Part shown: positions 240 through 39,422 of the stretch, one piece after another | How positions within the stretch are numbered: the stretch's first letter is position 1 | How the letters are laid out: each line of letters opens with the position of its first letter | Assembly (NCBI GenBank): GCA_013375475.1 | Contig: JABXKD010000032.1 | Coordinates: forward strand, 1-39,422 | Direction of reading: 5' to 3' | Length of the DNA stretch: 39,422 bases | Source: Promethearchaeota archaeon | GTDB lineage: Archaea > Asgardarchaeota > Lokiarchaeia > Sigyniarchaeales > SOKP01 | The notes under the pieces: model-generated | Told to the model about the DNA's origin: nothing | What the model saw: only the letters and a program-made list of their open reading frames with translations | Databases searched by the model: none | Translations under genes and position numbers: made by a program

Positions 240-2030
240 ATGCCTACTAAATTAGATGGATCATATCGAATTGACGAGAATAAGCGTTGGTTTCAGACAT
301 GGTGGCCTGAAAACGTACCCTGCAATGCAGATTTCGAAGAAAAATCTTTAAATGAAATGTTAGATGAACAAGTCGAGAAGTATCCAGATCATAACTTAAT
401 TTGGTTTCTCGGTACATGGGTATCCTATAAAATATTTCAAGATTACGTAAAAAGGTTTGCTACAGCATTAGTAGATTTGGGTATTAAAAAGGGCGATGTT
501 GTTGCTATTCATCTACCAAATTGTATTCAATATGTAGTGTCGTATTACGCAATTACGAGGATAGGAGCAATCGCAAGCGGGGTTAATCCAAACTACCAAA
601 CTATGGAGGTACTACATCAATTTGACATTATTAAACCAAAAATGCTGATAGTGTTAGATGCCCTCTATGGACCCTACATAAAGCCAATTATTGAAAATAC
701 GAGTATAGAAAAAGTTGTCCATACTAATCTTGTTGATCTAGCTCAGATGTTTGGTACTAAAAGAATCCTTGGTAAATTCTTGAAAAAAATTCCTACGGGT
801 AAATGCGATTGTGAAGGGGCAGTTAAATTTAAGGATTTAATAAAAACGGAACCTAGAGATTCAGATATAAATGTAAGTATAGATGTAAAAAATGACGCTG
901 CTAGTTATATAATGACAGGAGGATCAACGGGTTTGCCTAAAGCAGCCGTTTTAACGCATTTTAATACGGTATCCAATGCCAAGCAGTGTAAGTTATGGTT
1001 AGGGGGCGAGATGCCCGGTATTGGAAATATTGGAATCCTTCCCTTATTTCATAGCTTTGCTCACACTGTTGTTATGAATACTTCAATAGCCGTTGGAGGT
1101 TGGATGATACTCTTTCCTACACCACCATCTCAAGACGAGTTATGCGAACTAATAGAAAAACTTCCGTGCTCTGAAGGATTAATTTACGCGGGAGCAGAGA
1201 TTTTGTTTATCAAATTAGCCGAATTAAAACACTTGAATAGAAGATATCCCGGAGTAATGGGAAAATTAAAATTATGTATATCGAGCGCGGGACCATTACA
1301 TAAACAGGTTAGAGATGCTTTTGTAGAAAATACGGGCGGAAGAATCGTTGAAGGGTATGGATTGAGTGAAGCGAGTCCCGCGGTAAGTGCAGGTAATTTG
1401 TTTGGAGAAACTCCGGTAGGGGTGATAGGCATGCCTTTTCCGGGAACAGGATGGGGCATTTTTCCTTCAGACGATTTTTCCAAAGGACCTATATGCTTGG
1501 GGAATCCCGAGGATTCTAGTTTTGGAGTCGAAAATTCCGGAGAAATATGTGTTTATGGTCCTCAAATAATGAAATGTTATCTAGATCAATCAGAAGAGAC
1601 AGCTAATACGTTGCTTCAATATGATGGGAAAACTTGGCTTTTAACGGGGGATATCGGATTTATGAACGAAGATGGTACAATCGAAATTAGAGATCGTAAA
1701 AAACAACTCATAAAATTTAAGGGATACTCGGTTTTTCCTAAAGAAGTCGAAGAACTTCTAATGAAACATCCTAATATCTTAGAAGTAGCTGTTTCTGGGT
1801 TACCTAACGATGAATTTGGCGAAGTGATAAAAGCTTGGGTTTCAATAAGAGAAGATTCTGATTTATCTCCACGCTCGATTAAAGAATGGGCTTTAGAGAA
1901 TATGGCTCATTATAAAGTTCCACAACACATAGCTATAGTTGGAGACTTACCAAAAAATATTATTGGGAAAGTTCAAAGAAGAGCTCTTCAGATAAATGAT
2001 CCAATCTGGAAAGAAAAATATGGAGAATAA
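240..2030 (+). CDS. Long-chain acyl-CoA synthetase / AMP-binding enzyme (paralog 1)
   Basis: YIMTGGSTGLPK P-loop, EGYGLSE, TGDIG, RKKQLIK and C-terminal PKNIIGKV adenylate-forming enzyme motifs. Confidence 0.9.
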   Translation: MPTKLDGSYRIDENKRWFQTWWPENVPCNADFEEKSLNEMLDEQVEKYPDHNLIWFLGTWVSYKIFQDYVKRFATALVDLGIKKGDVVAIHLPNCIQYVVSYYAITRIGAIASGVNPNYQTMEVLHQFDIIKPKMLIVLDALYGPYIKPIIENTSIEKVVHTNLVDLAQMFGTKRILGKFLKKIPTGKCDCEGAVKFKDLIKTEPRDSDINVSIDVKNDAASYIMTGGSTGLPKAAVLTHFNTVSNAKQCKLWLGGEMPGIGNIGILPLFHSFAHTVVMNTSIAVGGWMILFPTPPSQDELCELIEKLPCSEGLIYAGAEILFIKLAELKHLNRRYPGVMGKLKLCISSAGPLHKQVRDAFVENTGGRIVEGYGLSEASPAVSAGNLFGETPVGVIGMPFPGTGWGIFPSDDFSKGPICLGNPEDSSFGVENSGEICVYGPQIMKCYLDQSEETANTLLQYDGKTWLLTGDIGFMNEDGTIEIRDRKKQLIKFKGYSVFPKEVEELLMKHPNILEVAVSGLPNDEFGEVIKAWVSIREDSDLSPRSIKEWALENMAHYKVPQHIAIVGDLPKNIIGKVQRRALQINDPIWKEKYGE

Positions 2031-2228
2031 ATACTAACTTTAGTCAAGTTTTCTAGAGTTTTTACTTTTTTGTTTTTAATCATCATTTATCGCTGAATTT
2101 AAAAGTTGCAGCCACACATATGATTTTATACAACAGATTGCTTTTTAATTTCTATAATAACGAATATAATATATTATGATGCATTAAAACATTTAGAACA
2201 ATTTATATAACAACGAGAGTGAGAAAAA

Positions 2229-4058
2229 ATACCTATTATAAAAGAAGATACTTACCAAATAAATGAAAATAAAATATGGTTTCAGAAATGGTGGCCGGAA
2301 GGGGTCCCAAAAAATGTTACATTTGAAGATAAAACCGTGAATCAATTATTAGATGCTCAAGTTGAAAAATATGCCGATCGGAATTTTATCTGGTTCTTAG
2401 AGACGTGGGTAACTTATCGTGAATTCCACGATTATGTTTTAAGCCTTGCAACAGCTCTCCACGACTTAGGAGTTAAAAAAGGCGACGTTGTAGCTATGCT
2501 TATGGGTAATTGTATTCAATATGTAGTTTCTTATTTTGCAATAACAAGGATAGGAGCAATCACATCGGGTATCAATCCAACTTATAAACCCTTAGAGATA
2601 TTGCACCAATTAGACGTAACTAACGCTAAATACTTAATTGCTTGGGATGCTTTCTTTGATGAAAAAAGTAAGTCAAGGATAAAGAAAAATTTACCCTATA
2701 TAGGAGAAATTCTTGGTAAAAGTTCCGTTGAAAAAGTTATATATACTAATCTTGCTGATTTAGCGCACGGTTTAGGCATTAAGCGAACATTAGGGAAGAA
2801 AATAGGAAAGATTCCTACGGGAAAAGTAAACCTCCCTGGCGCGGTTAATTTTATGGATTTATTAGATACAAAACCAAACGTTCCGGAAGTTAACATCGAT
2901 GTTAAAACGCATCCAGTTACATATATTATGACTGGTGGAACAACGGGATTGCCTAAAGCGGCCGTATTGACTCATTTTAATGCGGTTTCTAATGCGGAAC
3001 AATCCAAATATTGGCTTGGTGGTGAGAAACCAGGAATAGGAAACCTTGGGGTACTCCCATTTTTTCACAGTTTTGCCCATACAATAGTTATGAATGCAAC
3101 TATAGCTTTTGGAGGATGGATAATGATGTTTCCAACACCTCCACAAACTGAGGAATTACTAGAACACATTGAAGAGTTACCTGCCCCTGAAGGTTTAGTG
3201 TATGCGGGAGCTGAAATCTTATTTAAACGATTAGCAGATTTTCCAGACATAAAAGGAAAATATCCTGGAGTTATGGGTAAATTAAAATTATGTGCGTCAG
3301 GAGCTGGACCTCTACATCGCCCGGTGCGAGATGCTTTTGTAAAAAACACAGGAGGTAATATTGTAGAAGGATATGGATTAACAGAAACTTCGCCACTTGT
3401 TAGCGCGGGCAATCTCTTTAGTGAAAGTCCAATTGGAGTTATTGGATTACCTGTACCTGGTACAGAATGGGGAATTTGGCCCACTGATAATTTTGATGAT
3501 GGACCTATTTGCTTAGGAAACCCAGACGACACTAATTTTGGAGAAGAACATACAGGTGAAATTTGTGTTCATGGTCCTCAGGTTATGTACGAATATCTCA
3601 ATCAGCCTGAAGAAACGAGCGATACAATTAAAAACTACGAGGGCAAATTATGGCTATTAACTGGAGATATAGGTTTTATGAATGAAGATGGCACTATTGA
3701 GATAAGGGATCGTAAAAAACAGTTAATTAAAGTGGCAGGGCATTCAGTTTTTCCAAAAGAAGTTGAATCGATGTTAATGAAGCATGAAGCCGTTTCAGAG
3801 GCCGCTGTTTCTGGATTACCAGATCCTGCTGGAAAAGTTGGAGAAATAACAAAAGCGTGGGTTGAATTAAAGCCCGAATACATTGGAAAAATCACTGAAG
3901 AGGAATTAATAGCGTGGATTCAAGAAAATTTAACGAAATGGAAGTGTCCATCAATGATCGAGTTCATTCAAGAGGTTCCAAAAAATATTCTTGGAAAAGT
4001 TCAACGTAGAATACTTCAAATTAACGATCCTATTTGGAAAGAAAAATATAGTAAATAA
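2229..4058 (+). CDS. Long-chain acyl-CoA synthetase (paralog 2); start extended from ORF-track GTG 2337 to ATA 2229
   Basis: Same motifs (YIMTGGTTGLPK, EGYGLTE, TGDIG). The 36 codons upstream of 2337 align without gaps to residues 1-36 of paralog 1. In-frame TGA at 2220-2222 bounds the ORF. Confidence 0.88.
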   Translation: MPIIKEDTYQINENKIWFQKWWPEGVPKNVTFEDKTVNQLLDAQVEKYADRNFIWFLETWVTYREFHDYVLSLATALHDLGVKKGDVVAMLMGNCIQYVVSYFAITRIGAITSGINPTYKPLEILHQLDVTNAKYLIAWDAFFDEKSKSRIKKNLPYIGEILGKSSVEKVIYTNLADLAHGLGIKRTLGKKIGKIPTGKVNLPGAVNFMDLLDTKPNVPEVNIDVKTHPVTYIMTGGTTGLPKAAVLTHFNAVSNAEQSKYWLGGEKPGIGNLGVLPFFHSFAHTIVMNATIAFGGWIMMFPTPPQTEELLEHIEELPAPEGLVYAGAEILFKRLADFPDIKGKYPGVMGKLKLCASGAGPLHRPVRDAFVKNTGGNIVEGYGLTETSPLVSAGNLFSESPIGVIGLPVPGTEWGIWPTDNFDDGPICLGNPDDTNFGEEHTGEICVHGPQVMYEYLNQPEETSDTIKNYEGKLWLLTGDIGFMNEDGTIEIRDRKKQLIKVAGHSVFPKEVESMLMKHEAVSEAAVSGLPDPAGKVGEITKAWVELKPEYIGKITEEELIAWIQENLTKWKCPSMIEFIQEVPKNILGKVQRRILQINDPIWKEKYSK

Positions 4059-8723: not shown

Positions 8724-9833
8724 ATGCAAATCAAAAAAAACATGCCTTACGAGATCGACGAGAATTCCTACAGTCGCTTTGAGCAAAAGAATAACATGCT
8801 TTATAGGAGATTATGGGATAAATCTCTACCTACTTATGGGAAGATGTTCGAGTACAATATAGACACTCATATTAGTTTGGGTGAAGATGGATACTCTAGG
8901 ATTGATTTTGCGTTAGTCGCAGCAGGATGGACTGTTTATGAGAATTTTCCTTTCGCTTTCAGTTGGCATCGAGAGGAATTAATGGACATAGGATACGGGG
9001 TAGACTGGATGAGAGAAAAATATCCCGTTAAAGATTTAAAAACATTTACCGAAAAAACAAAAAAAGCAGCCAAATTTTACGGAGCTTCACTCGTAGGGAT
9101 CGCTGATGTTGATGAAAAATGGATTTATAAAACAGGATTTGTAAGGCCAGCATCAACCAGCGAAGCAGATTCAAAAGAAGCAATTAGAAAAGGTAACGCA
9201 TCTAATTCTATTTTAGAAACCCCGGTTAATTTACCCGAGGGAATCGATAAAGTAATTGTTATGGCTATTGAAATGGACGAAATAGCCATTTCTACTGCCC
9301 CTGCTCAACCTGCTTCCGCTGCAGCAGCCTTAGGTTATTCAAAAATGGCTTTTACAATCGCCTGTTTAGGAGAATTTATAAGAAATTTAGGATATCGAGC
9401 GATTCAATGTGGTAACGATACTGCACTTAGTATTCCGTTGGCAATTGATGCCGGTTTGGGGGCATTAGGGAGAAATGGATTGTTGCTCACACCAGAATAT
9501 GGTCCAAGAGTTAGAATATGTAAAGTTTTTACTGACTTGCCATTAATAGCTGATGATATAAACCTAAGGTTTATCAAAAAAGTTGAAAAATTCTGTAAGA
9601 CATGCTATAAATGCGCTGAGGCTTGTGAAACAGACGCAATAACTAAAGAAATAGACCCTACTTTTGAACCAGCTACAATTTCTAACAATTCATGTGTAAA
9701 AAAATACTATGTTGATGTAGAAAGATGCTTTGAATATTGGATCGAAAATTCAGGTGATTGCGGGAATTGTATTGCTGTTTGTCCTTTCTCCAAAATTAAA
9801 AGTATCAGTACTCCTTCTGAATTTTGGAAATAA
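8724..9833 (+). CDS. Reductive dehalogenase-like cobalamin/2x[4Fe-4S] protein (RdhA/QueG superfamily)
   Basis: FEQKNNM, AAKFYGASLVGIA, PLAIDAGLGALGRNG..TPEYGPRVR, FCKTCYKCAEAC, CFEYW...DCGNCIAVCPF. Confidence 0.82.
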   Translation: MQIKKNMPYEIDENSYSRFEQKNNMLYRRLWDKSLPTYGKMFEYNIDTHISLGEDGYSRIDFALVAAGWTVYENFPFAFSWHREELMDIGYGVDWMREKYPVKDLKTFTEKTKKAAKFYGASLVGIADVDEKWIYKTGFVRPASTSEADSKEAIRKGNASNSILETPVNLPEGIDKVIVMAIEMDEIAISTAPAQPASAAAALGYSKMAFTIACLGEFIRNLGYRAIQCGNDTALSIPLAIDAGLGALGRNGLLLTPEYGPRVRICKVFTDLPLIADDINLRFIKKVEKFCKTCYKCAEACETDAITKEIDPTFEPATISNNSCVKKYYVDVERCFEYWIENSGDCGNCIAVCPFSKIKSISTPSEFWK

Positions 9834-12299: not shown

Positions 12300-14009
12300 A
12301 TGAAAGTTATTGATAAAAAGGCAATAGCAGAAGTTCTGGAAAAATATATTTCAGATCTTAGCATAGAAGAAATAGAATTGTCAATTGAAATTCCGCCTCC
12401 AGAGCTTGACTTCACTTATGCATTTCCTTGTTTCAAACTTTCAAAATTTTTCAAGAAAGCTCCAATTCAAATAGCTCAAGATTTATTAGATAAGATTAAA
12501 CAACCCGAATTCATAGAAAAAATTGAAGTAGCTGGTCCTTACTTAAACTTTAAAATCAATCCTAAGTTCATACTTGAAAGCGTTTTTGAATTAAAAAGTG
12601 ATTATGGGAGGATTAGAGAAACCTCAAAAATCGGGCTTAAATCAAGAGTAGTAATTGAATATCCCTCGCCAAACACTAATAAACCTCTTCACTTTGGTCA
12701 TGTTAGAAATATGGTATTAGGTAAGTCTTTATCAAATTTATTACAATACAAAGGTCATAAAGTTTTTCAGGTAAATTTGAACAACGATAGGGGAATACAT
12801 ATCTGTAAGAGTATGCTTGCGTATAAGAAATGGGGAAATAATAGTCAACCAGATAAAAAAGGAGATCATTTTGTTGGAGACTACTATGTGCTTTATAGCA
12901 ATAGGGTTAAAGAAGATAAGGACTTAGCCAAGGAGGCTCAGGATTTATTAATATCTTGGGAAGCAGGTGATCAAGAAACTCTTGATTTATGGAATAAAAT
13001 GAATAAGTGGGCGATAAGTGGTTTTAGAGAAACATATGCTAAATTCAATATCAAATTTGATAAGGAATATAATGAATCTGACTTGTATCTATCAGGAAAA
13101 GAAAAGATTCTAGATGCTTTGAATCGAGGAATCTTTGAAAAAACCGAAGATGGAGCAGTTATCGCTAGATTAAAAGATAAATACAATCTTGAGGACAAAA
13201 TCTTGATTAGGAGTGATGGTACATCAATATACATAACTCAAGACATATATTTAGCTTACAAGAAGAAAGAGGATTTTAATTACGACAGGTCTATTTATGT
13301 CGTAGCTAACGAACAAATCCAACATTTTAAATGGCTTTTTGCTTTATTGGATATGCTTGGATTTAAGGAAGATAATTTTCACTTGTCTTATGGGATGATA
13401 GATCTCCCTAGTGGAAAAATGAAAAGCAGAGAAGGCACAGTCGTCGATGCTGATGACGTGATAGAAGAAGTGGAAAATCTCGCCTTTGAAGAAGTTAACA
13501 AAAGGTATCCAACTCTGACTAATAACGAAAAGAAAAAGAGAGCAAAAACAATTAGTTTAGCAGCAATTATTTTTTACATATTGAAATATAGTTATGTCAA
13601 GGGGTTTATTTTTGAGCCAGATGAGAGTATTTCATTTGAAGGTGAAACAGGTCCTTATATTCAATATTGTTATGCGAGAATTGCATCTATTATTTCGAAA
13701 ACTAAACAAGAGATTGATTTGAACATAAAATGGCAATTATTAGCTCATGAAAAGGAACAGTTTTTAGTAAAACAATTAGCATATTTCCCTGAAATTATCG
13801 ACACAGCTGAGAAAACATATAATATTCATTTAATCCCTCAATATCTACTTACTTTATGCCAAGGATTTAATTCATTTTATTCTGCTTGCCAAGTATTATC
13901 TGATGATAAGGAACTAGAAAAAGCTAGACTTTTACTTATAAGGTGTGTTCAAATCGTAATTAAAATCGGATTGGACATATTAGGAATAGATACATTAAAT
14001 CAAATGTAA
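12300..14009 (+). CDS. argS: Arginyl-tRNA synthetase
   Basis: IEYPSPNTNKPLHFGH (HIGH), RSDGT..Y..QD, GKMKSREG, FEGETGPYIQY. Confidence 0.96.
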   Translation: MKVIDKKAIAEVLEKYISDLSIEEIELSIEIPPPELDFTYAFPCFKLSKFFKKAPIQIAQDLLDKIKQPEFIEKIEVAGPYLNFKINPKFILESVFELKSDYGRIRETSKIGLKSRVVIEYPSPNTNKPLHFGHVRNMVLGKSLSNLLQYKGHKVFQVNLNNDRGIHICKSMLAYKKWGNNSQPDKKGDHFVGDYYVLYSNRVKEDKDLAKEAQDLLISWEAGDQETLDLWNKMNKWAISGFRETYAKFNIKFDKEYNESDLYLSGKEKILDALNRGIFEKTEDGAVIARLKDKYNLEDKILIRSDGTSIYITQDIYLAYKKKEDFNYDRSIYVVANEQIQHFKWLFALLDMLGFKEDNFHLSYGMIDLPSGKMKSREGTVVDADDVIEEVENLAFEEVNKRYPTLTNNEKKKRAKTISLAAIIFYILKYSYVKGFIFEPDESISFEGETGPYIQYCYARIASIISKTKQEIDLNIKWQLLAHEKEQFLVKQLAYFPEIIDTAEKTYNIHLIPQYLLTLCQGFNSFYSACQVLSDDKELEKARLLLIRCVQIVIKIGLDILGIDTLNQM

Positions 14010-14034
14010 TTCACAAATAAAAAAGGGGAAAAGC

Positions 14035-14934
14035 TTGACTTTTTTTGACTTTGGGGAAACGATTGATAACGATACGGAATTTGTGTTCTTTGGCATTCCA
14101 TGGAATTATTTAAGCTCTTTAGAAATAGTTGATTCAGCAAAAGCACCACAAAAAATACGTGAAATTTCAGAAAATTTAGGATTGACAACCGAAATGGGGA
14201 TCGAAATACCTAAATTAAAAGTTGTTGATGTAGGAAATGTTGCGATTGAGCCTACGAATATTGAGAACAATATTGTAAAAATAGTAAAGTTTATGAAATC
14301 TATATTTAGTCAAAATAAAAGAATAATTCCAATTATGGTTGGAGGTGACCATTTTTGCACTTATCCCGTAGTAAAAACAATGGGAGATTCTTTTGATAAA
14401 AAAAGCGGATTTGGAGTGCTTATCTTTGACGCTCATCTCGATTTTTATAAAAGCTATGATAAAGGTAAATATTCTCACGCTACAGTTTCCCACCGCATTT
14501 TTGACTTAGAATATGTATCCAACAACAATTTACTTATTGTCGGAACAAGAGATATCGATGTTCCGGAGTTAGATATCACAAAAAAAGAGCAAATTGCTTA
14601 TTTAAACGCTTATACATTTCACGACATCGGATTTAATTCGTTTACAGATAAAATTTTAGCATTTTTTGAAAAATCTAACGCGAAAGATATATACGTTTCG
14701 ATTGATATCGATGTTTTAGATCCCTCTATAGCACCAGGGACGGGATATGCGATTCCAGGAGGATTTTCTTATCGTGAATTATGGCAAATTTTAAGAAAAT
14801 TGGCTGAAAATATCAATATTATTGGTTTTGATGTAGTAGAGGTTTCTCCCAACTTGGATTTACTTAATAATATTACTTCCAATTTGGCAGCTAAATTAAT
14901 AATTGAATTGATTTCTTTTATTTCCAATAAGTAG
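14035..14934 (+). CDS. speB: Agmatinase / ureohydrolase family
   Basis: GGDH, DAHLD, SHAT, SIDIDVLDPSIAPGTG, GFDVVEVSP. Confidence 0.85.
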   Translation: MTFFDFGETIDNDTEFVFFGIPWNYLSSLEIVDSAKAPQKIREISENLGLTTEMGIEIPKLKVVDVGNVAIEPTNIENNIVKIVKFMKSIFSQNKRIIPIMVGGDHFCTYPVVKTMGDSFDKKSGFGVLIFDAHLDFYKSYDKGKYSHATVSHRIFDLEYVSNNNLLIVGTRDIDVPELDITKKEQIAYLNAYTFHDIGFNSFTDKILAFFEKSNAKDIYVSIDIDVLDPSIAPGTGYAIPGGFSYRELWQILRKLAENINIIGFDVVEVSPNLDLLNNITSNLAAKLIIELISFISNK

Positions 14935-14938
14935 GGAA

Positions 14939-15898
14939 GTGAACATTATGCCGAATGATGACATTAAAAAAAAAATGAAGAAGGTACATCAATTTAGGAT
15001 AGATGAGAAGGATGACATTGTTGATCTTATTTCATCTTTAAAAGACACGGGATTTAACGCTAAACGTTTAGCTGTAGCTTGTGAGATATATAAGAAAATG
15101 ATTCAAGATAAAGACTGTGTTAAATTTTTTGGTCTTGCAGGTGCATTAGTTCCGGCTGGGATGCAAAAAGTCATCCATGATTTTATAAAAGAAGGATTTG
15201 TGGATGTTCTTGTTACTACAGGCGCTTCTTTAACTCACGACATTGCAGAAACTTTAGGTTATCACCATTTACAAGGGGATTTAAGCGCGATAAAAGTTGA
15301 TGATTCTAAGCTGCATAACCAAGAGTTAAATCGAATCTACGATGTATTCTTGCCGAATAAAGTTTACGAAGGGATTGAAGATTTTGTGTCAAAATTAGAG
15401 ATTCCTGACGAAAACATGCCAATTAGCTCATTTTTAAAGTTTCTTGGTAATAAGCTTCCAGAAAATGAAAGTTCTATTCTTAAAATCTGTGCAGAAAAAA
15501 ATGTCCCAATCTTCTGTCCTGCTTTTACTGATTCAGGTTTAGCATTACAATTAGGATTTCATCACCAAAATTTAAACCTTAATCACTTCAAAGACATGTT
15601 AACGATGGTAGATCTAGCATGGGATACTAAACGAGCGGGAGTATGTATTGTTGGTGGTGGAGTTCCTAAGAATTTTATAATGCAATCGCTTCAATTTTGT
15701 CCTAATTCTGCCCAGTATGCAATTCAAATAACTATGGATCGGCCAGAGCAAGGAGGTCTTAGTGGGGCGACTTTAAGCGAAGCTATATCATGGGGGAAGG
15801 TAAGCGAGGAGGCTGAATTCTCAACGGTAATTTCTGATGCCACAATCGCTCTTCCTTTAATATTGTGGTATTTACTGAAATCAAAATCGACAAATTGA
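14939..15898 (+). CDS. dys: Deoxyhypusine synthase
   Basis: TGFNA, GALVPAG, TTGASLTHD, RIYDVF, FCPAFTDS, GGGVPKN, GGLSGATLSEAISWGK (catalytic Lys). Confidence 0.93.
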   Translation: MNIMPNDDIKKKMKKVHQFRIDEKDDIVDLISSLKDTGFNAKRLAVACEIYKKMIQDKDCVKFFGLAGALVPAGMQKVIHDFIKEGFVDVLVTTGASLTHDIAETLGYHHLQGDLSAIKVDDSKLHNQELNRIYDVFLPNKVYEGIEDFVSKLEIPDENMPISSFLKFLGNKLPENESSILKICAEKNVPIFCPAFTDSGLALQLGFHHQNLNLNHFKDMLTMVDLAWDTKRAGVCIVGGGVPKNFIMQSLQFCPNSAQYAIQITMDRPEQGGLSGATLSEAISWGKVSEEAEFSTVISDATIALPLILWYLLKSKSTN

Positions 15899-19710: not shown

Positions 19711-20259
19711 ATGAGTGATAGTGACGAGCGGAAGGATTTTGTTTTCAAAATAACTGTAATTGGCGATGGGGGAGTCGGTAAAACCTCTTTAATTAAAAAA
19801 TATACAAAGGGAAGTTTTAAGAAGGAGTATATTAAAACTTTAGGAGCTCAATTCTCTAAATATGACGAGAAAATAGAAGGGAGCGCAGTAAAATTGTTTT
19901 TCTGGGATATTGCAGGTCAAGCTGAATTTTCATTTATGAGACCAACCTTTTACAAGGGGAGTAAAGCTGCGATTATAGTTTTTTCTCATGCACCAGGTGA
20001 AGTTGAGAAAAGCTTTGATCATATCTTTGATTGGCACGAAGATATTAAAAAATATTGCGGAGATATTCCAATTGTACTATTCGGCAATAAGATTGATTTG
20101 ATAGATGAAAGTTCAATTGATAATGGAAAGATAGAAGAAATAGTTAATAAAAGAGATTTTCTAGGATTTTATAAAACTAGCGCGAAAACAGGGAATGGCG
20201 TTTACGAAGCGTTTCAGGCGATAATTAAAAATCTTTATGAGAAATATAAGGACCTTTAA
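19711..20259 (+). CDS. Rab-like small GTPase
   Basis: GDGGVGKT, KTLGAQF, WDIAGQ, GNKID, KTSAK. Confidence 0.93.
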   Translation: MSDSDERKDFVFKITVIGDGGVGKTSLIKKYTKGSFKKEYIKTLGAQFSKYDEKIEGSAVKLFFWDIAGQAEFSFMRPTFYKGSKAAIIVFSHAPGEVEKSFDHIFDWHEDIKKYCGDIPIVLFGNKIDLIDESSIDNGKIEEIVNKRDFLGFYKTSAKTGNGVYEAFQAIIKNLYEKYKDL

Positions 20260-36568: not shown

Positions 36569-37075
36569 ATGTCATATAACTGGAATAATAAGAATTTCGA
36601 TAAGTCATATGGATTTAATCTAGAAAAGATAAATTCTAGTAATAGTCGATTTCATGCTATATATTTTTTAGACAATTTAACGGGTTCTCTTCTTCTTAGC
36701 AATAAATATACAAGTGACGCCAAGTTTTCTTCTCATGAAGATTTAATAAGTGGTTTCTTGAACGCACTAAACCTATTTATGAGTGAAATAAAACCCGAAT
36801 CAGAAAACGATGAGATTCAAGAAGTTAATTTTAGAGAAAGTAGAATATTATACGAGAGAAGGGGGAGATTATTAGTTATCGGAATTTCGAAAAAAACGAA
36901 TATTAACGCGGAAAGGGTTATTTTGCGCCAGATTATGGAAGATTTCTACCATAAATTTGAATATGTAATAAGGAATTTTAACGGGAATATTGATCCTTCG
37001 ATTTTACAGTATAAAAAAAGATTAGAAAATATGAATTTAAATGATTTATATAAAATTGATAATTACTCATTGTGA
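36569..37075 (+). CDS. Longin-like domain protein
   Basis: AIYFLDNLTGSLLL..Y..EDLISGFLNALNLF.SEI..IQEVNF..RILY..LLVIGIS..ILRQIMEDFY.KF. Confidence 0.7.
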   Translation: MSYNWNNKNFDKSYGFNLEKINSSNSRFHAIYFLDNLTGSLLLSNKYTSDAKFSSHEDLISGFLNALNLFMSEIKPESENDEIQEVNFRESRILYERRGRLLVIGISKKTNINAERVILRQIMEDFYHKFEYVIRNFNGNIDPSILQYKKRLENMNLNDLYKIDNYSL

Positions 37076-37103
37076 TAAAAAACTCCCTAGAAGATTATAA
37101 CCT

Positions 37104-38585
37104 TTAAGTAGGATTATCATCCTTCTTCTTTTCTTCAATCTTCTCAATTTCGCTTTCGATTTTCGAACCGATACCCTTTATATCGGGTTTAAGATGAACT
37201 CTTTCTAAATCTCGTTCTTTTTGCTTTTCTATAATGAAGGCTTTTTCACCAATGATTTTTTCGATGGCTTCACTAGATTTCTCGAGTTCAGGCTTTATCT
37301 CCATTCTTTTCTTGTCCATTTCTCTCTGTTTTTCAATTCTAAACGCTTTTTCATCAATTGTTGATTTTATTGCTTGGCTTGCTCTTTCTAAATCGGGTTT
37401 GACTTCCATCCGTCTAGAATCGTCATCCCGTTGTTTATCTCGTAAAAATGCTTTTTCTTCTATTGAATGACTTATTTTCTCTGCTGTTTTTTCAATATCT
37501 GGTTTTAATTCCCTTTTTTTTTCATAAATTTCACGTTGTTTTTCAACTCTGAACGCTTTTTCAGCAACGGTAGTATTAATTGCAGTGCTAGCTTTTAAAA
37601 AATCTGGTTTAATCTCCATTCGCTTGAGATCTTTCTCTCGTTGTGTTTCCCTCATAAAGGCTTTTTCACTAATAGTTTGAGAAATACTTTCTCCTGTTTT
37701 GCTTATATCCGGTTTTAATTCTTTTATTTTTTTGTCCTTATCTTTTTGCAGGTCGATTCTAAATGCTTTTTCATCAATGGTTGCTTTAATAGCCTGGCTT
37801 TTTCCAGCTATATCTGGACGTAACCCTAATTTCTTCTCTTCTAATTCTTTCCTTTTCTCCATTCTGAACGCTTTTTCTGCTACTGTTTTATTGATTGCTT
37901 CTCCTGTTTTCATAAAATCTGGACTTATCCTCATTCTTTCGAGATCGCTTTCTCTTTGTTTTTCCCTTAGAAATGATTTCTCCTCAATAGATTTACTTAT
38001 TGCTTCACTGGCGCTTTGAATATCTGGTTTTAATTCATGCATACTTGCAGTACTATCTTTCTTTTTTTCAATCAAAAATGCTTTTGTGTCAATGTTATCA
38101 CTAATAGCTTGTCCAGTGCTCTCAATATCGGGCTTTAATTTTAATCTTTGCGCATCTGTTTCTCTTTTTTTTTCAATTAGAAATGCTTTATCCTCAATGA
38201 TTTTACTAATTACTTCTCCTACACCTTTAATATCTGGAGTTATATATCTCCTAATTTGATCTTCTTCTTTATGTTTAGCTATTATAAATGCTTTTTCGCT
38301 AATAGATTTCTCAATAGCTTCCCCCGTTTTTTCAATATCGGGTTTTATTTCCATTCTCTCTATATCTCGCTCTCGTTGTTTCTCTCTCATGAAACTTTTT
38401 TCAGAGATTAATGAAGAAATCATAGCTTTGCTTTCTTCGAAAGAGGCCTTTCGTTCTTCCTCGAAACTTTTTAAGTAATTTTCTCTGTCTTCCTTTTCTT
38501 TCTTAAAAAGGTCATCAACAATCTTCTTTTGCTTTTCTATTTCTTCGGGAGTTAATGGTTTTTCGTTTTCTTCCAATTTTCTCAC
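37104..38585 (-). CDS. Highly charged tandem-repeat protein (12 x 35 aa)
   Basis: Residues 62-481 divide exactly into 12 units, consensus EKAFxxEKQRExDxxRMEIKPDIEKTGEAIxxxIx. Confidence 0.88.
   Translation of the reverse strand: MRKLEENEKPLTPEEIEKQKKIVDDLFKKEKEDRENYLKSFEEERKASFEESKAMISSLISEKSFMREKQRERDIERMEIKPDIEKTGEAIEKSISEKAFIIAKHKEEDQIRRYITPDIKGVGEVISKIIEDKAFLIEKKRETDAQRLKLKPDIESTGQAISDNIDTKAFLIEKKKDSTASMHELKPDIQSASEAISKSIEEKSFLREKQRESDLERMRISPDFMKTGEAINKTVAEKAFRMEKRKELEEKKLGLRPDIAGKSQAIKATIDEKAFRIDLQKDKDKKIKELKPDISKTGESISQTISEKAFMRETQREKDLKRMEIKPDFLKASTAINTTVAEKAFRVEKQREIYEKKRELKPDIEKTAEKISHSIEEKAFLRDKQRDDDSRRMEVKPDLERASQAIKSTIDEKAFRIEKQREMDKKRMEIKPELEKSSEAIEKIIGEKAFIIEKQKERDLERVHLKPDIKGIGSKIESEIEKIEEKKKDDNPT
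37143..38402 (-). repeat. Twelve 105-bp (35-codon) diverged coding repeats
   Basis: Every unit carries (E/D/T)K(A/S)F and P(D/E) at fixed spacing, with no indels. Confidence 0.9.
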
Positions 38586-38753
38586 TTAAAGAGTTAATTA
38601 AAATCTTTTTAAATATAATATCAAAATTTGTATTTAATAATTTACTTATCTAAGATTTAATAGATTTCAATATTTCAAATGTCCAAATTACTACGATTTT
38701 GAAAAACAGAGAACTTTGGAGAGGAACAACAATCAAATATTCGAACAAGAGAG

Positions 38754-39386
38754 TTAATTTATTGGAATAGGTTCAAATGAATCGTCTGATATCGATTCCA
38801 TTAAACTAATCATCGTAAGCCTCATCGAAAACATTTCCATCACTTCGGTCAAGAGTTTTAAGTAAACTTCGGAATTTTTGACAATTTTAAAACTACTTGC
38901 TAAAAATTCATATTCTTTTTTCAATTCAGTTTTAATTTTATTTTGATTATTTAACGTAATTGCTTGAGTCTTCAGCCATTTATCAATGTTCGCCTTAATT
39001 TCACTTTCAACATCATCAACAAGGGAATAAGAGATTTCTTCTTCCTTAATGTTTTTTGCCCTATCAAGATAAGCACTATTTTGATACATTGGTTTAAGGA
39101 GTAGCCCTAAATTTATTATTATGGGTTGAATTTGAAGTTTTTCAAATGAATCAGATAAAACTTTTAGAATTTGCCTTTTCTGCGTTAATTGAGCGTAATC
39201 GATATACTCTTGAACAAATCTCATTAAAGCATTTTTGATTAGGAGCTCTTTAAAATCACTTACGGAATCCAATCCGAAATCTAAAGTAGTATCAATGCAA
39301 TTGTATACAGAATTCATGAATGGTTTAACATTCTTAAAAATCGAAAAGTAATTGATAAATTGAGTAATTTTACTTAGGATTTCCAT
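38754..39386 (-). CDS. Hypothetical protein (predicted alpha-helical)
   Basis: 210-aa ORF, no recognised motif. Confidence 0.65.
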   Translation of the reverse strand: MEILSKITQFINYFSIFKNVKPFMNSVYNCIDTTLDFGLDSVSDFKELLIKNALMRFVQEYIDYAQLTQKRQILKVLSDSFEKLQIQPIIINLGLLLKPMYQNSAYLDRAKNIKEEEISYSLVDDVESEIKANIDKWLKTQAITLNNQNKIKTELKKEYEFLASSFKIVKNSEVYLKLLTEVMEMFSMRLTMISLMESISDDSFEPIPIN

Positions 39387-39422
39387 CTTAAGATTATCTG
39401 GTTCAAATAGGGCGTCGATCTT

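Follow-up and report, generated by a model that had tools for sequence, protein, structure and literature searches.

A lineage-restricted Asgard protein of exactly spaced 35-residue helical repeats, a candidate lateral binder of a periodic polymer

We analyzed a 39,422-nucleotide (nt) stretch of DNA from a Promethearchaeota archaeon (JABXKD010000032.1, here called the window), which is one entire contig of a 3.9-Mb genome bin. The subject of this study is a gene on its reverse strand that encodes a repeat protein and is single copy in that genome (Table 1). The window also encodes TBP, CDC48, deoxyhypusine synthase, and a Ras-family GTPase, and the genome holds four actin-family genes (best E 2.2e-132). 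This agrees with an earlier reading of the DNA, made from the sequence alone (the sequence-only reading), which had assumed an Asgard host with actin and had proposed that the protein is a nebulin-like ruler or stabilizer of actin filaments.

The core of the protein is an array of twelve contiguous 35-amino-acid (aa) units, with zero insertions or deletions from aa 62 to aa 481 (the register being printed from aa 62). The sequence-only reading had described this array correctly, and the two units that it quoted are units 1 and 11. Self-identity of the protein is 0.384 at a lag of 35, 0.39 at 70, and 0.41 at 105. No other lag between 1 and 119 exceeds 0.15, and the runner-up among lags 20 to 59 reaches 0.139. 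No DNA tandem array was detected inside the gene by Tandem Repeats Finder; therefore, the units are old and have diverged at the DNA level.

The unit consensus is EKAFxxEKQRExDxxRxxLKPDxEKxGEAIxKSIx, and the unit profile matches this gene at 12 places. Mean column identity of the units is 63%. Across 280 units of the window's genus, K2 (98%), F4 (97%), I30 (98%), and P21 (95%) are near-invariant, and E1, E7, K8, R10, E11, D13, R16, K20, and D22 each are found in 73 to 87%. The protein had been called strongly charged with few hydrophobic residues, which fits its composition: D, E, K, and R make up 47.5%, A, I, L, M, F, V, W, Y, and C make up 30.8%, and the net charge is +4. Unit length also is strictly kept among relatives. 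Successive xK(A/S)F motifs were compared in 49 non-redundant proteins, and 436 of the 480 spacings measured exactly 35 aa. The minority comprises 8 spacings of 32 aa, 3 of 38, and 7 of 70, the last being sites where one motif was lost. The other 26 are 5, 12, 16, 30, or 88 aa; 18 of these are 16 aa, which we take, from the sequence, to be the distance between the N-terminal half-unit and unit 1. The number of units in relatives ranges from ~7 to 13.

Table 1. Features of the repeat gene and of other parts of the window
Feature	Positions	Strand	Description
Repeat-protein open reading frame (ORF)	37104..38585	(-)	493 codons open, GTG to TAA
Probable real coding sequence	37104-38576	(-)	490 aa, TTG start at codon 4
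N-terminal conserved head, aa 1-61	38403..38585	(-)	single long helix predicted; ends with half-unit (K-A-S-F ... I-S-S-L-I-S)
Twelve-unit array, aa 62-481	37143..38402	(-)	105 nt per 35-aa unit
Unit 1	38298-38402	(-)	
Unit 2	38193-38297	(-)	further units in descending order
Unit 12	37143-37247	(-)	
Lys/Glu-rich C-terminal tail, aa 482-493, and stop codon	37104..37142	(-)	short
AAGTGAG, conserved	38581..38587	(-)	read as Shine-Dalgarno-like, 4 nt ahead of codon-4 TTG
Promoter-like AT-rich element	38606..38643	(-)	38 nt; TATA-like ATTATATTTAAAAA and TAAATAC box upstream
Four antisense ORFs inside the gene	37234-37470, 37699-38019, 38086-38259, 38256-38411	(+)	51-106 aa
168-aa neighbor	36569-37075	(+)	no family match
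Ras-family small GTPase	19711-20259	(+)	E 3e-41
Arginyl-tRNA synthetase, arginase-family (agmatinase-like) gene, deoxyhypusine synthase	12300-15898	(+)	in series
Two tandem AMP-binding (acyl-CoA synthetase-like) genes, reductive-dehalogenase-like Fe-S protein	240-4058 and 8724-9833	(+)	weak Pfam matches (Fe-S protein)

Inspection of the 5' end suggested that the annotated start is misplaced. Codon 4 could serve as a start in all 18 sequences compared, those of the window and of 17 orthologues (TTG in 12, ATG in 5, and GTG in 1). Alignment of the 18 upstream regions revealed that the annotated GTG is part of a conserved AAGTGAG preceding codon 4, and the ESM Atlas record of the protein begins at residue 4. 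Because of these observations, translation probably begins at codon 4 and yields a protein of 490 aa, and the annotated GTG probably belongs to the ribosome-binding site. The AAGTGA core is present in at least 80% of the aligned regions, and the complete AAGTGAG is present in most, not all, of them. The AT-rich element that lies ~20 to 60 nt upstream of the repeat gene is common to several genera. One exact copy is present in the window, where 0 are expected by chance, and a whole-genome search for a regulon at up to 3 mismatches found no second copy. Judged by this conservation, the repeat gene has its own promoter-like element.

The head (~60 aa, ENEKPLTPEEIEKQKK...LYKKEKEERE.YLK...) is kept in all members of family f1, with many invariant or near-invariant columns within aa 8 to 60 of the full-length alignment (A3). 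Within genus g1 the tail is conserved and reads KIExKKK(D/E)..., and a longer helical tail is found in other genera. In L075, L077, and P0002, the array is followed by an extra C-terminal motif, K-T-D-x-E-K-W-L-x-Q...K-x-x-R-K-D, beyond which P0002 has a further tail of ~70 aa; in such relatives the extra motif may be a second functional end. Genus g1 also has a super-repeat of 105 aa, in that identity between units is 0.59 at a unit distance of 3 versus 0.46 to 0.50 at distances of 1, 2, 4, and 5 (window positions 37143-38402 and loci L013, L018, L021, and L028). In other genera unit identity decays steadily with distance, and no three-unit super-repeat was seen. The 105-aa period is near the length of a spectrin repeat, yet no bundle is predicted. 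The four antisense ORFs are rich in F, S, L, and I, as expected from GAA/AAA-rich codons read backwards, and orthologues show similar frames; these ORFs most likely are artifacts.

The ratio of nonsynonymous to synonymous substitution (dN/dS) of the repeat gene was 0.068 to 0.154 in 9 pairwise comparisons, and all 12 units find a positional counterpart in the 74%-identical orthologue L003. By these measures the gene is real and under purifying selection. With the whole protein as the query, relatives were found in 37 of 61 related genomes (own genome included) and in 33 of 36 genomes of the same genus. The unit profile (A1, built from 89 units) matched 110 of 154 genomes of the order, including 109 of the 134 other genomes of family f1, in 11 of its 13 genera. 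Parts of the gene are covered, at 85 to 99% identity, by contigs of RNA libraries (3 runs in 2 studies; for example, 227 nt with 3 differences from the gene); this is a weak hint of transcription, as such libraries can hold DNA, and the stretches of the gene and its flanks that no contig covers carry no information. Contigs L053-L093, which carry close orthologues with the same synteny, bear the labels Promethearchaeota/-ia, Hod-, Hermod-, Odin-, and Thorarchaeota and, in one case, "Nanopelagicaceae bacterium"; some of these labels probably are wrong, or the bins are mixed.

Database comparisons did not assign the protein to any described family. Searches of Pfam and NCBIfam returned nothing above threshold for the whole protein, and 89 single units compared with Pfam at E<=10 matched no Nebulin and no TPR (tetratricopeptide repeat) model; the sole recurrent match was Entericidin, which is spurious and sub-threshold (17 of 89 units). 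A word-indexed search of proteins 271 to 863 aa long found no match for the whole protein or for aa 1-100, and ESM Atlas gave no usable match to the whole protein nor, among named clusters, to aa 62-271. The best match of the unit profile to PDB sequences (E 1.1) was a 16-residue "REIDKRMNSLKPDL"-type stretch of the PI3-kinase regulatory subunit, and nebulin was not among the matches. That search could not have revealed nebulin, because the nebulin chain of the thin-filament structure is built as poly-alanine, according to excerpts of its description (10.1101/2021.10.06.463400). Exhaustive phmmer searching gave 65 matches, most of them short pieces of members of the repeat family. Those that were long, at 19 to 28% identity, were TPR proteins with an "(A)LEIKPD" motif and one apolipoprotein-like protein. 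On sequence grounds we regard the repeat proteins as an uncharacterized, lineage-restricted Asgard (Promethearchaeia) family, which might already stand as an unnamed cluster in Asgard protein-cluster or proteome tables.

Structure prediction with AlphaFold2 from the single sequence gave a chain of helices throughout, with breaks of low confidence at most K-P-D positions (predicted local distance difference test [pLDDT], 68.8; predicted TM-score [pTM], 0.19). The most confident region was the head (block pLDDT 80 to 93, aa 11-70). For four units, an alignment of 125 windows out of ~280 available, filtered at 80% identity, was supplied; helices were predicted at residues 2-19, 21-54, 58-89, 91-124, and 126-139 (pLDDT 63.9, pTM 0.20). 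In these models the structural unit is about one helix per repeat, 18 to 35 residues long (inner helices, 32 to 34), which begins at D22 and reaches K20 of the following unit. Neither with nor without the alignment was a compact fold or any confident tertiary packing predicted. Foldseek found 0 matches to the full model in the PDB at E<=10. An exhaustive VIA-align search with the four-unit model placed long single helices of coiled-coil proteins at the top (Z<=7.3; root mean square deviation [rmsd], 8 to 17 Å), the best match, at Z 7.3 and rmsd 13.7 Å, lying below the tool's own meaningful level for long helices. This result tells us no more than that the model has the shape of an extended rod. 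The sequence-only reading had expected an extended protein rather than a solenoid, and the predicted helix chain, in which neither solenoid nor bundle appears, points the same way. On a helical wheel, a narrow Ile/Ala stripe (I23, G27, I30, I34, A3, and I6) would occupy one face, and the opposite face would carry a ladder of E and K residues that includes the conserved F4.

We tentatively read the protein as an extended rod of ~63 nm that presents one binding surface per 35 aa and lies sideways on a periodic polymer, a reading that we consider possible rather than probable. The protein would be cytoplasmic, lineage specific, and fibrous, with a 60-aa helical head, twelve helices broken at K-P-D, and a lysine-rich tail. 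Because every unit repeats the same near-invariant residue set (K2, F4, E7, K8, R10, E11, D13, R16, K20-P21-D22, and I30), the rod would show the same surface 12 times, ~5.2 nm apart, across its length. It then would act as a multivalent lateral binder (a scaffold or stabilizer) of a periodic polymer, one unit per subunit. The dimensions follow from a fully helical chain, in which 35 aa at 1.5 Å each would span 52.5 Å; we infer the length of the rod in this way, as we do the exposure of the conserved residues and the existence and identity of a periodic partner. A copy number of ~7 to 13 with exact spacing suits a modular ruler or scaffold. Strict unit length, near-invariant charged and aromatic positions, variable unit number, and no compact fold fit a multivalent rod, and a flexible linker or a globular repeat domain would fit the same evidence less well.

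Lokiactin would be the first candidate partner to consider, because the 52.5 Å per unit compares with 55.8 Å along one strand of its filament (rise 27.9 Å per subunit, as given in excerpts of PMC9834061). Taken as a version of the periodic lateral binder, binding to Lokiactin is nevertheless doubtful, and the protein would be an analogue of nebulin or tropomyosin in function, not a homologue. Spelled out in full, this version is something of a long shot: the protein would be a counterpart of nebulin or tropomyosin, of independent origin, along Lokiactin, with one 35-aa helix per subunit, stabilizing or measuring ~65 nm and invented in one Promethearchaeia family. The Asgard actin partners named in excerpts of PMC9834061 and PMC13716822 are profilins, gelsolins, and actin-related proteins (ARPs) only. 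The literature that we searched on Lokiactin (titles, abstracts, and passages) describes no side-binding, length-setting, or stabilizing partner. Nor did our searches on Asgard/nebulin and Lokiactin find any account of a nebulin-like Asgard protein, in keeping with what had been stated from the sequence alone.

The likeness to nebulin on which the sequence-only reading had relied holds in part. As in nebulin, nebulette, and LASP (PF00880), the protein has ~35-aa tandem units that are mainly helical with one break per unit, a Pro per unit with an acid-x-x-aromatic motif ~17 to 18 residues later, a variable number of units with a higher-order super-repeat, and no compact fold predicted from sequence. 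Nebulin units are far less alike than those of the repeat protein, with its 63% mean column identity. According to excerpts of 10.1101/2021.10.06.463400, nebulin simple repeats are 31 to 38 aa long, mostly 35, and Pro at position 5 precedes Tyr at position 22 by 17 residues. The proposed register stood, at 18 residues from Pro to Phe versus those 17 from Pro to Tyr, and the proposed likeness to the SDxxYK motif mostly did not. Here the motif is (E/D)-K-(A/S)-F, with F in 97% and Y in 1% of units. Because Ser precedes it in 15% of units and the Phe is followed by a basic residue in 33%, the parallel shrinks to an acid-x-x-aromatic motif plus a Pro one residue out of register. Unlike nebulin, the protein has Phe for the invariant Tyr and mostly lacks the Ser and Lys of SDxxYK; its super-repeat is of 3 units, in genus g1 only, versus nebulin's 7; and it has no SH3, LIM, or capping-protein-binding ends. 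Profile similarity also is missing, and by sequence the label of nebulin homologue fails; a function as an actin ruler would be an analogy.

Two further families in which helical units meet actin were compared. In WH2 and beta-thymosin proteins, one unit binds one actin subunit. Tandem proteins of this kind resemble the repeat protein in their short units, each with an N-terminal amphipathic helix, and differ from it in that the repeat protein has no LKKT-type motif. This candidate was ruled out, as neither profile matches the repeat gene at E<=10. Tropomyosin is likewise a long all-helical rod with a quasi-repeat near the actin subunit spacing, and tropomyosin chains are among the VIA-align matches (Z 6.7 to 7.0), which is not discriminating; unlike tropomyosin, the repeat protein has no significant heptad signal, and Pro is present in 95% of its units.

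The gene neighborhood is stable. With the repeat gene oriented on the (+) strand, the order in at least 5 genera is PadR-like (-), DUF362 (+), 255-aa gene (+), repeat gene (+), 168-aa gene (-), 156-aa gene (+), small membrane protein (-), and radical SAM (+). The 255-, 168-, and 156-aa neighbors match no Pfam family above threshold and no PDB sequence of note; the sequence pattern of the 168-aa neighbor may resemble that of roadblock/longin-type domains. Compared with the repeat gene, the 255-aa gene has a broader range, being present in 115 of 154 genomes, including 7 of 7 of genus g29, 2 of 2 of genus g23, and 8 of 14 of family f2. To judge from its flanks, the repeat gene is a clean insertion or deletion within a stable gene block, independent of its neighbors. 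Elsewhere in the window, the genes at 12300-15898 may form a hypusination and polyamine cluster.

Several observations weigh against a periodic lateral binder, and some of them against Lokiactin in particular. No cytoskeletal genes were found among the neighbors of the repeat gene. In 7 of 7 loci compared with window positions 36569-39422 (L100-L106, from two sister genera and family f2), the 255-aa and 168-aa genes directly adjoin, the repeat gene being absent from a junction that ranges from a 13-bp overlap to a 144-bp gap; because of this, the repeat gene is dispensable in the sister genera. Of three actin-related paralogues, a 508-aa ARP was the one compared for co-distribution, and its range does not follow that of the repeat: clear orthologues of this ARP occur in both of the genera without a repeat gene. 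The sequence-only reading had linked the repeat to actin, and the two distributions do not coincide: of the 154 genomes of the order, all 154 have actin-family genes and 110 have the repeat. The range of the repeat is narrow. Outside family f1, the unit profile A1 matched 0 of 14 genomes of f2, 0 of 1 of f3, and 0 of 4 of f4. The full-length profile A3 matched 114 of 400 genomes of the phylum (f1, 109 of 134; f2, 1 of 14; f4, 2 of 4; and f20, 1 of 5, at a doubtful E of 3e-6) and gave 0 matches in all other families. The weak relatives outside f1 retain the head and the "(G)EKAF" junction, with a period of 37 aa and no Pro in one f2 genome and of ~40 aa in f4. Even where the array is kept, Pro is not universal, as H-P-D or even H-A-D replaces K-P-D in some genera. 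The AlphaFold2 models are only moderately confident. Six-frame translation of the genome searched at E<=10 with the Thymosin (PF01290) and WH2 (PF02205) profiles gave no match to the repeat gene; the matches that were obtained (E 0.3 to 1.8) lie on other contigs only. None of the 89 units matched the Pfam Nebulin profile at E<=10, and neither did the whole protein at E<=1.

Among other explanations, the one that survives best is a self-assembling fiber, in which rods would pair or bundle through the Ile/Ala stripe into a filament or lattice. We consider this somewhat unlikely. It is attractive in that 35 residues equal five heptads, hydrophobic residues lie 3 to 4 apart over half of each unit, the rare 32-aa units are 3 residues shorter, and a helix is confidently predicted at the N terminus (pLDDT 80 to 93); the top structural look-alikes also are chains of coiled coils, which is not discriminating. 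The hydrophobic pattern itself argues otherwise. Its power is 442 at a period of 3.5, below the 583 at 3.89, and 786 of 5,000 shuffles reach the period-3.5 value, so the heptad signal of the unit is not significant; moreover, Arg and Asp occupy the core-equivalent positions 10 and 13, and a Pro interrupts 95% of the units. A two-copy prediction for aa 1-201 with a 22-row alignment, run without controls, gave ipSAE values of 0.00 and 0.00 and is no evidence either way.

If the units bound nothing, the protein could be a rigid spacer or ruler, a rod like a single alpha-helix that would keep the head and the basic tail ~60 to 70 nm apart. The fraction of charged residues (47.5%) and an E/K/R ladder from i to i+3 or i+4 on one face (positions 25, 28, 32, 1, 8, 11, and 15) would suit a charged single alpha-helix (ER/K), both ends are conserved, and the predicted shape is extended. 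A spacer, however, does not need near-invariant F4, I30, P21, and D22 in every unit, and I34 and L19 also are conserved, where an ER/K helix would have no conserved hydrophobic positions. With ~7 to 13 units among species, the distance is not fixed. We regard this explanation as unlikely.

More improbable still is an array of Pro-punctuated amphipathic helices on a membrane or lipid surface, as in exchangeable apolipoproteins or LEA-like proteins. Exchangeable apolipoprotein helices (PF01442) share with the repeat protein the tandem arrangement of amphipathic helices parted by Pro, and one weak phmmer match (P0055, E 8.6e-5) has an apolipoprotein-like region. The unit, however, is 35 aa and not 11 or 22, and comparison of the whole protein with the Pfam Apolipoprotein profile (PF01442) gave no match at E<=1. 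In our reading of the wheel, the stripe of hydrophobic residues is narrow (~80 degrees), and F4, the best conserved aromatic residue, falls on the charged face. The net charge is just +4.

We consider a degenerate TPR-like solenoid scaffold very improbable. The phmmer search matched TPR proteins at E-values of 6e-12 to 1e-4 (P0025, P0031, P0033, P0034, P0038, and P0041 among them), and these share with the repeat protein a 34/35-aa period and an "(L/I)E(I/L)KPD" motif at the unit boundary. When unit and three-unit profiles were aligned by hhalign with the TPR units from these matches, however, the probability was 0.8 to 1.8% and "lKPD" alone was aligned. Because of this, the phmmer E-values reflect a repeated short motif and not homology; scores of repeats against repeats overstate relatedness and call for caution. 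On the hhalign probability we set the TPR candidate aside. In addition, neither any of the 89 units nor the whole protein matches a Pfam TPR model, the residues equivalent to the helix-B core are charged here, and AlphaFold2 with 125 rows predicts no helix-turn-helix or hairpin packing.

True, very distant homology to nebulin, nebulette, or LASP repeats is scarcely credible, since the shared 35-aa period, Pro and broken helix per unit, and acid-x-x-aromatic motif one residue out of step are set against a Nebulin profile that matched neither the units, the whole protein, nor the six-frame genome (nothing at E<=10, with 37 candidates scored) at every threshold tried, although HMMER filters may hide very weak matches, and against Phe in place of a "fully conserved" Tyr, Ser in 15% of units, no 7-unit super-repeat, no SH3 or LIM end domain, and confinement to one archaeal family.

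Returning to the rod as a lateral binder of a periodic polymer, little is said by it about the eukaryotic ancestor, because the repeat protein occurs in a single archaeal family and sister genera do without it. Its interest lies in a protein that is constrained, strictly periodic, and without known relatives, which makes it a cheap, concrete candidate for assay against Lokiactin and other Asgard filaments. Were binding to Lokiactin true, this would be the first archaeal filament-tracking protein, and if the repeat protein binds a filament, it would represent the convergent invention of a ruler or stabilizer before eukaryotes. If it does not bind, it still would be a clean natural case of a Pro-punctuated helical module of exactly 35 residues.

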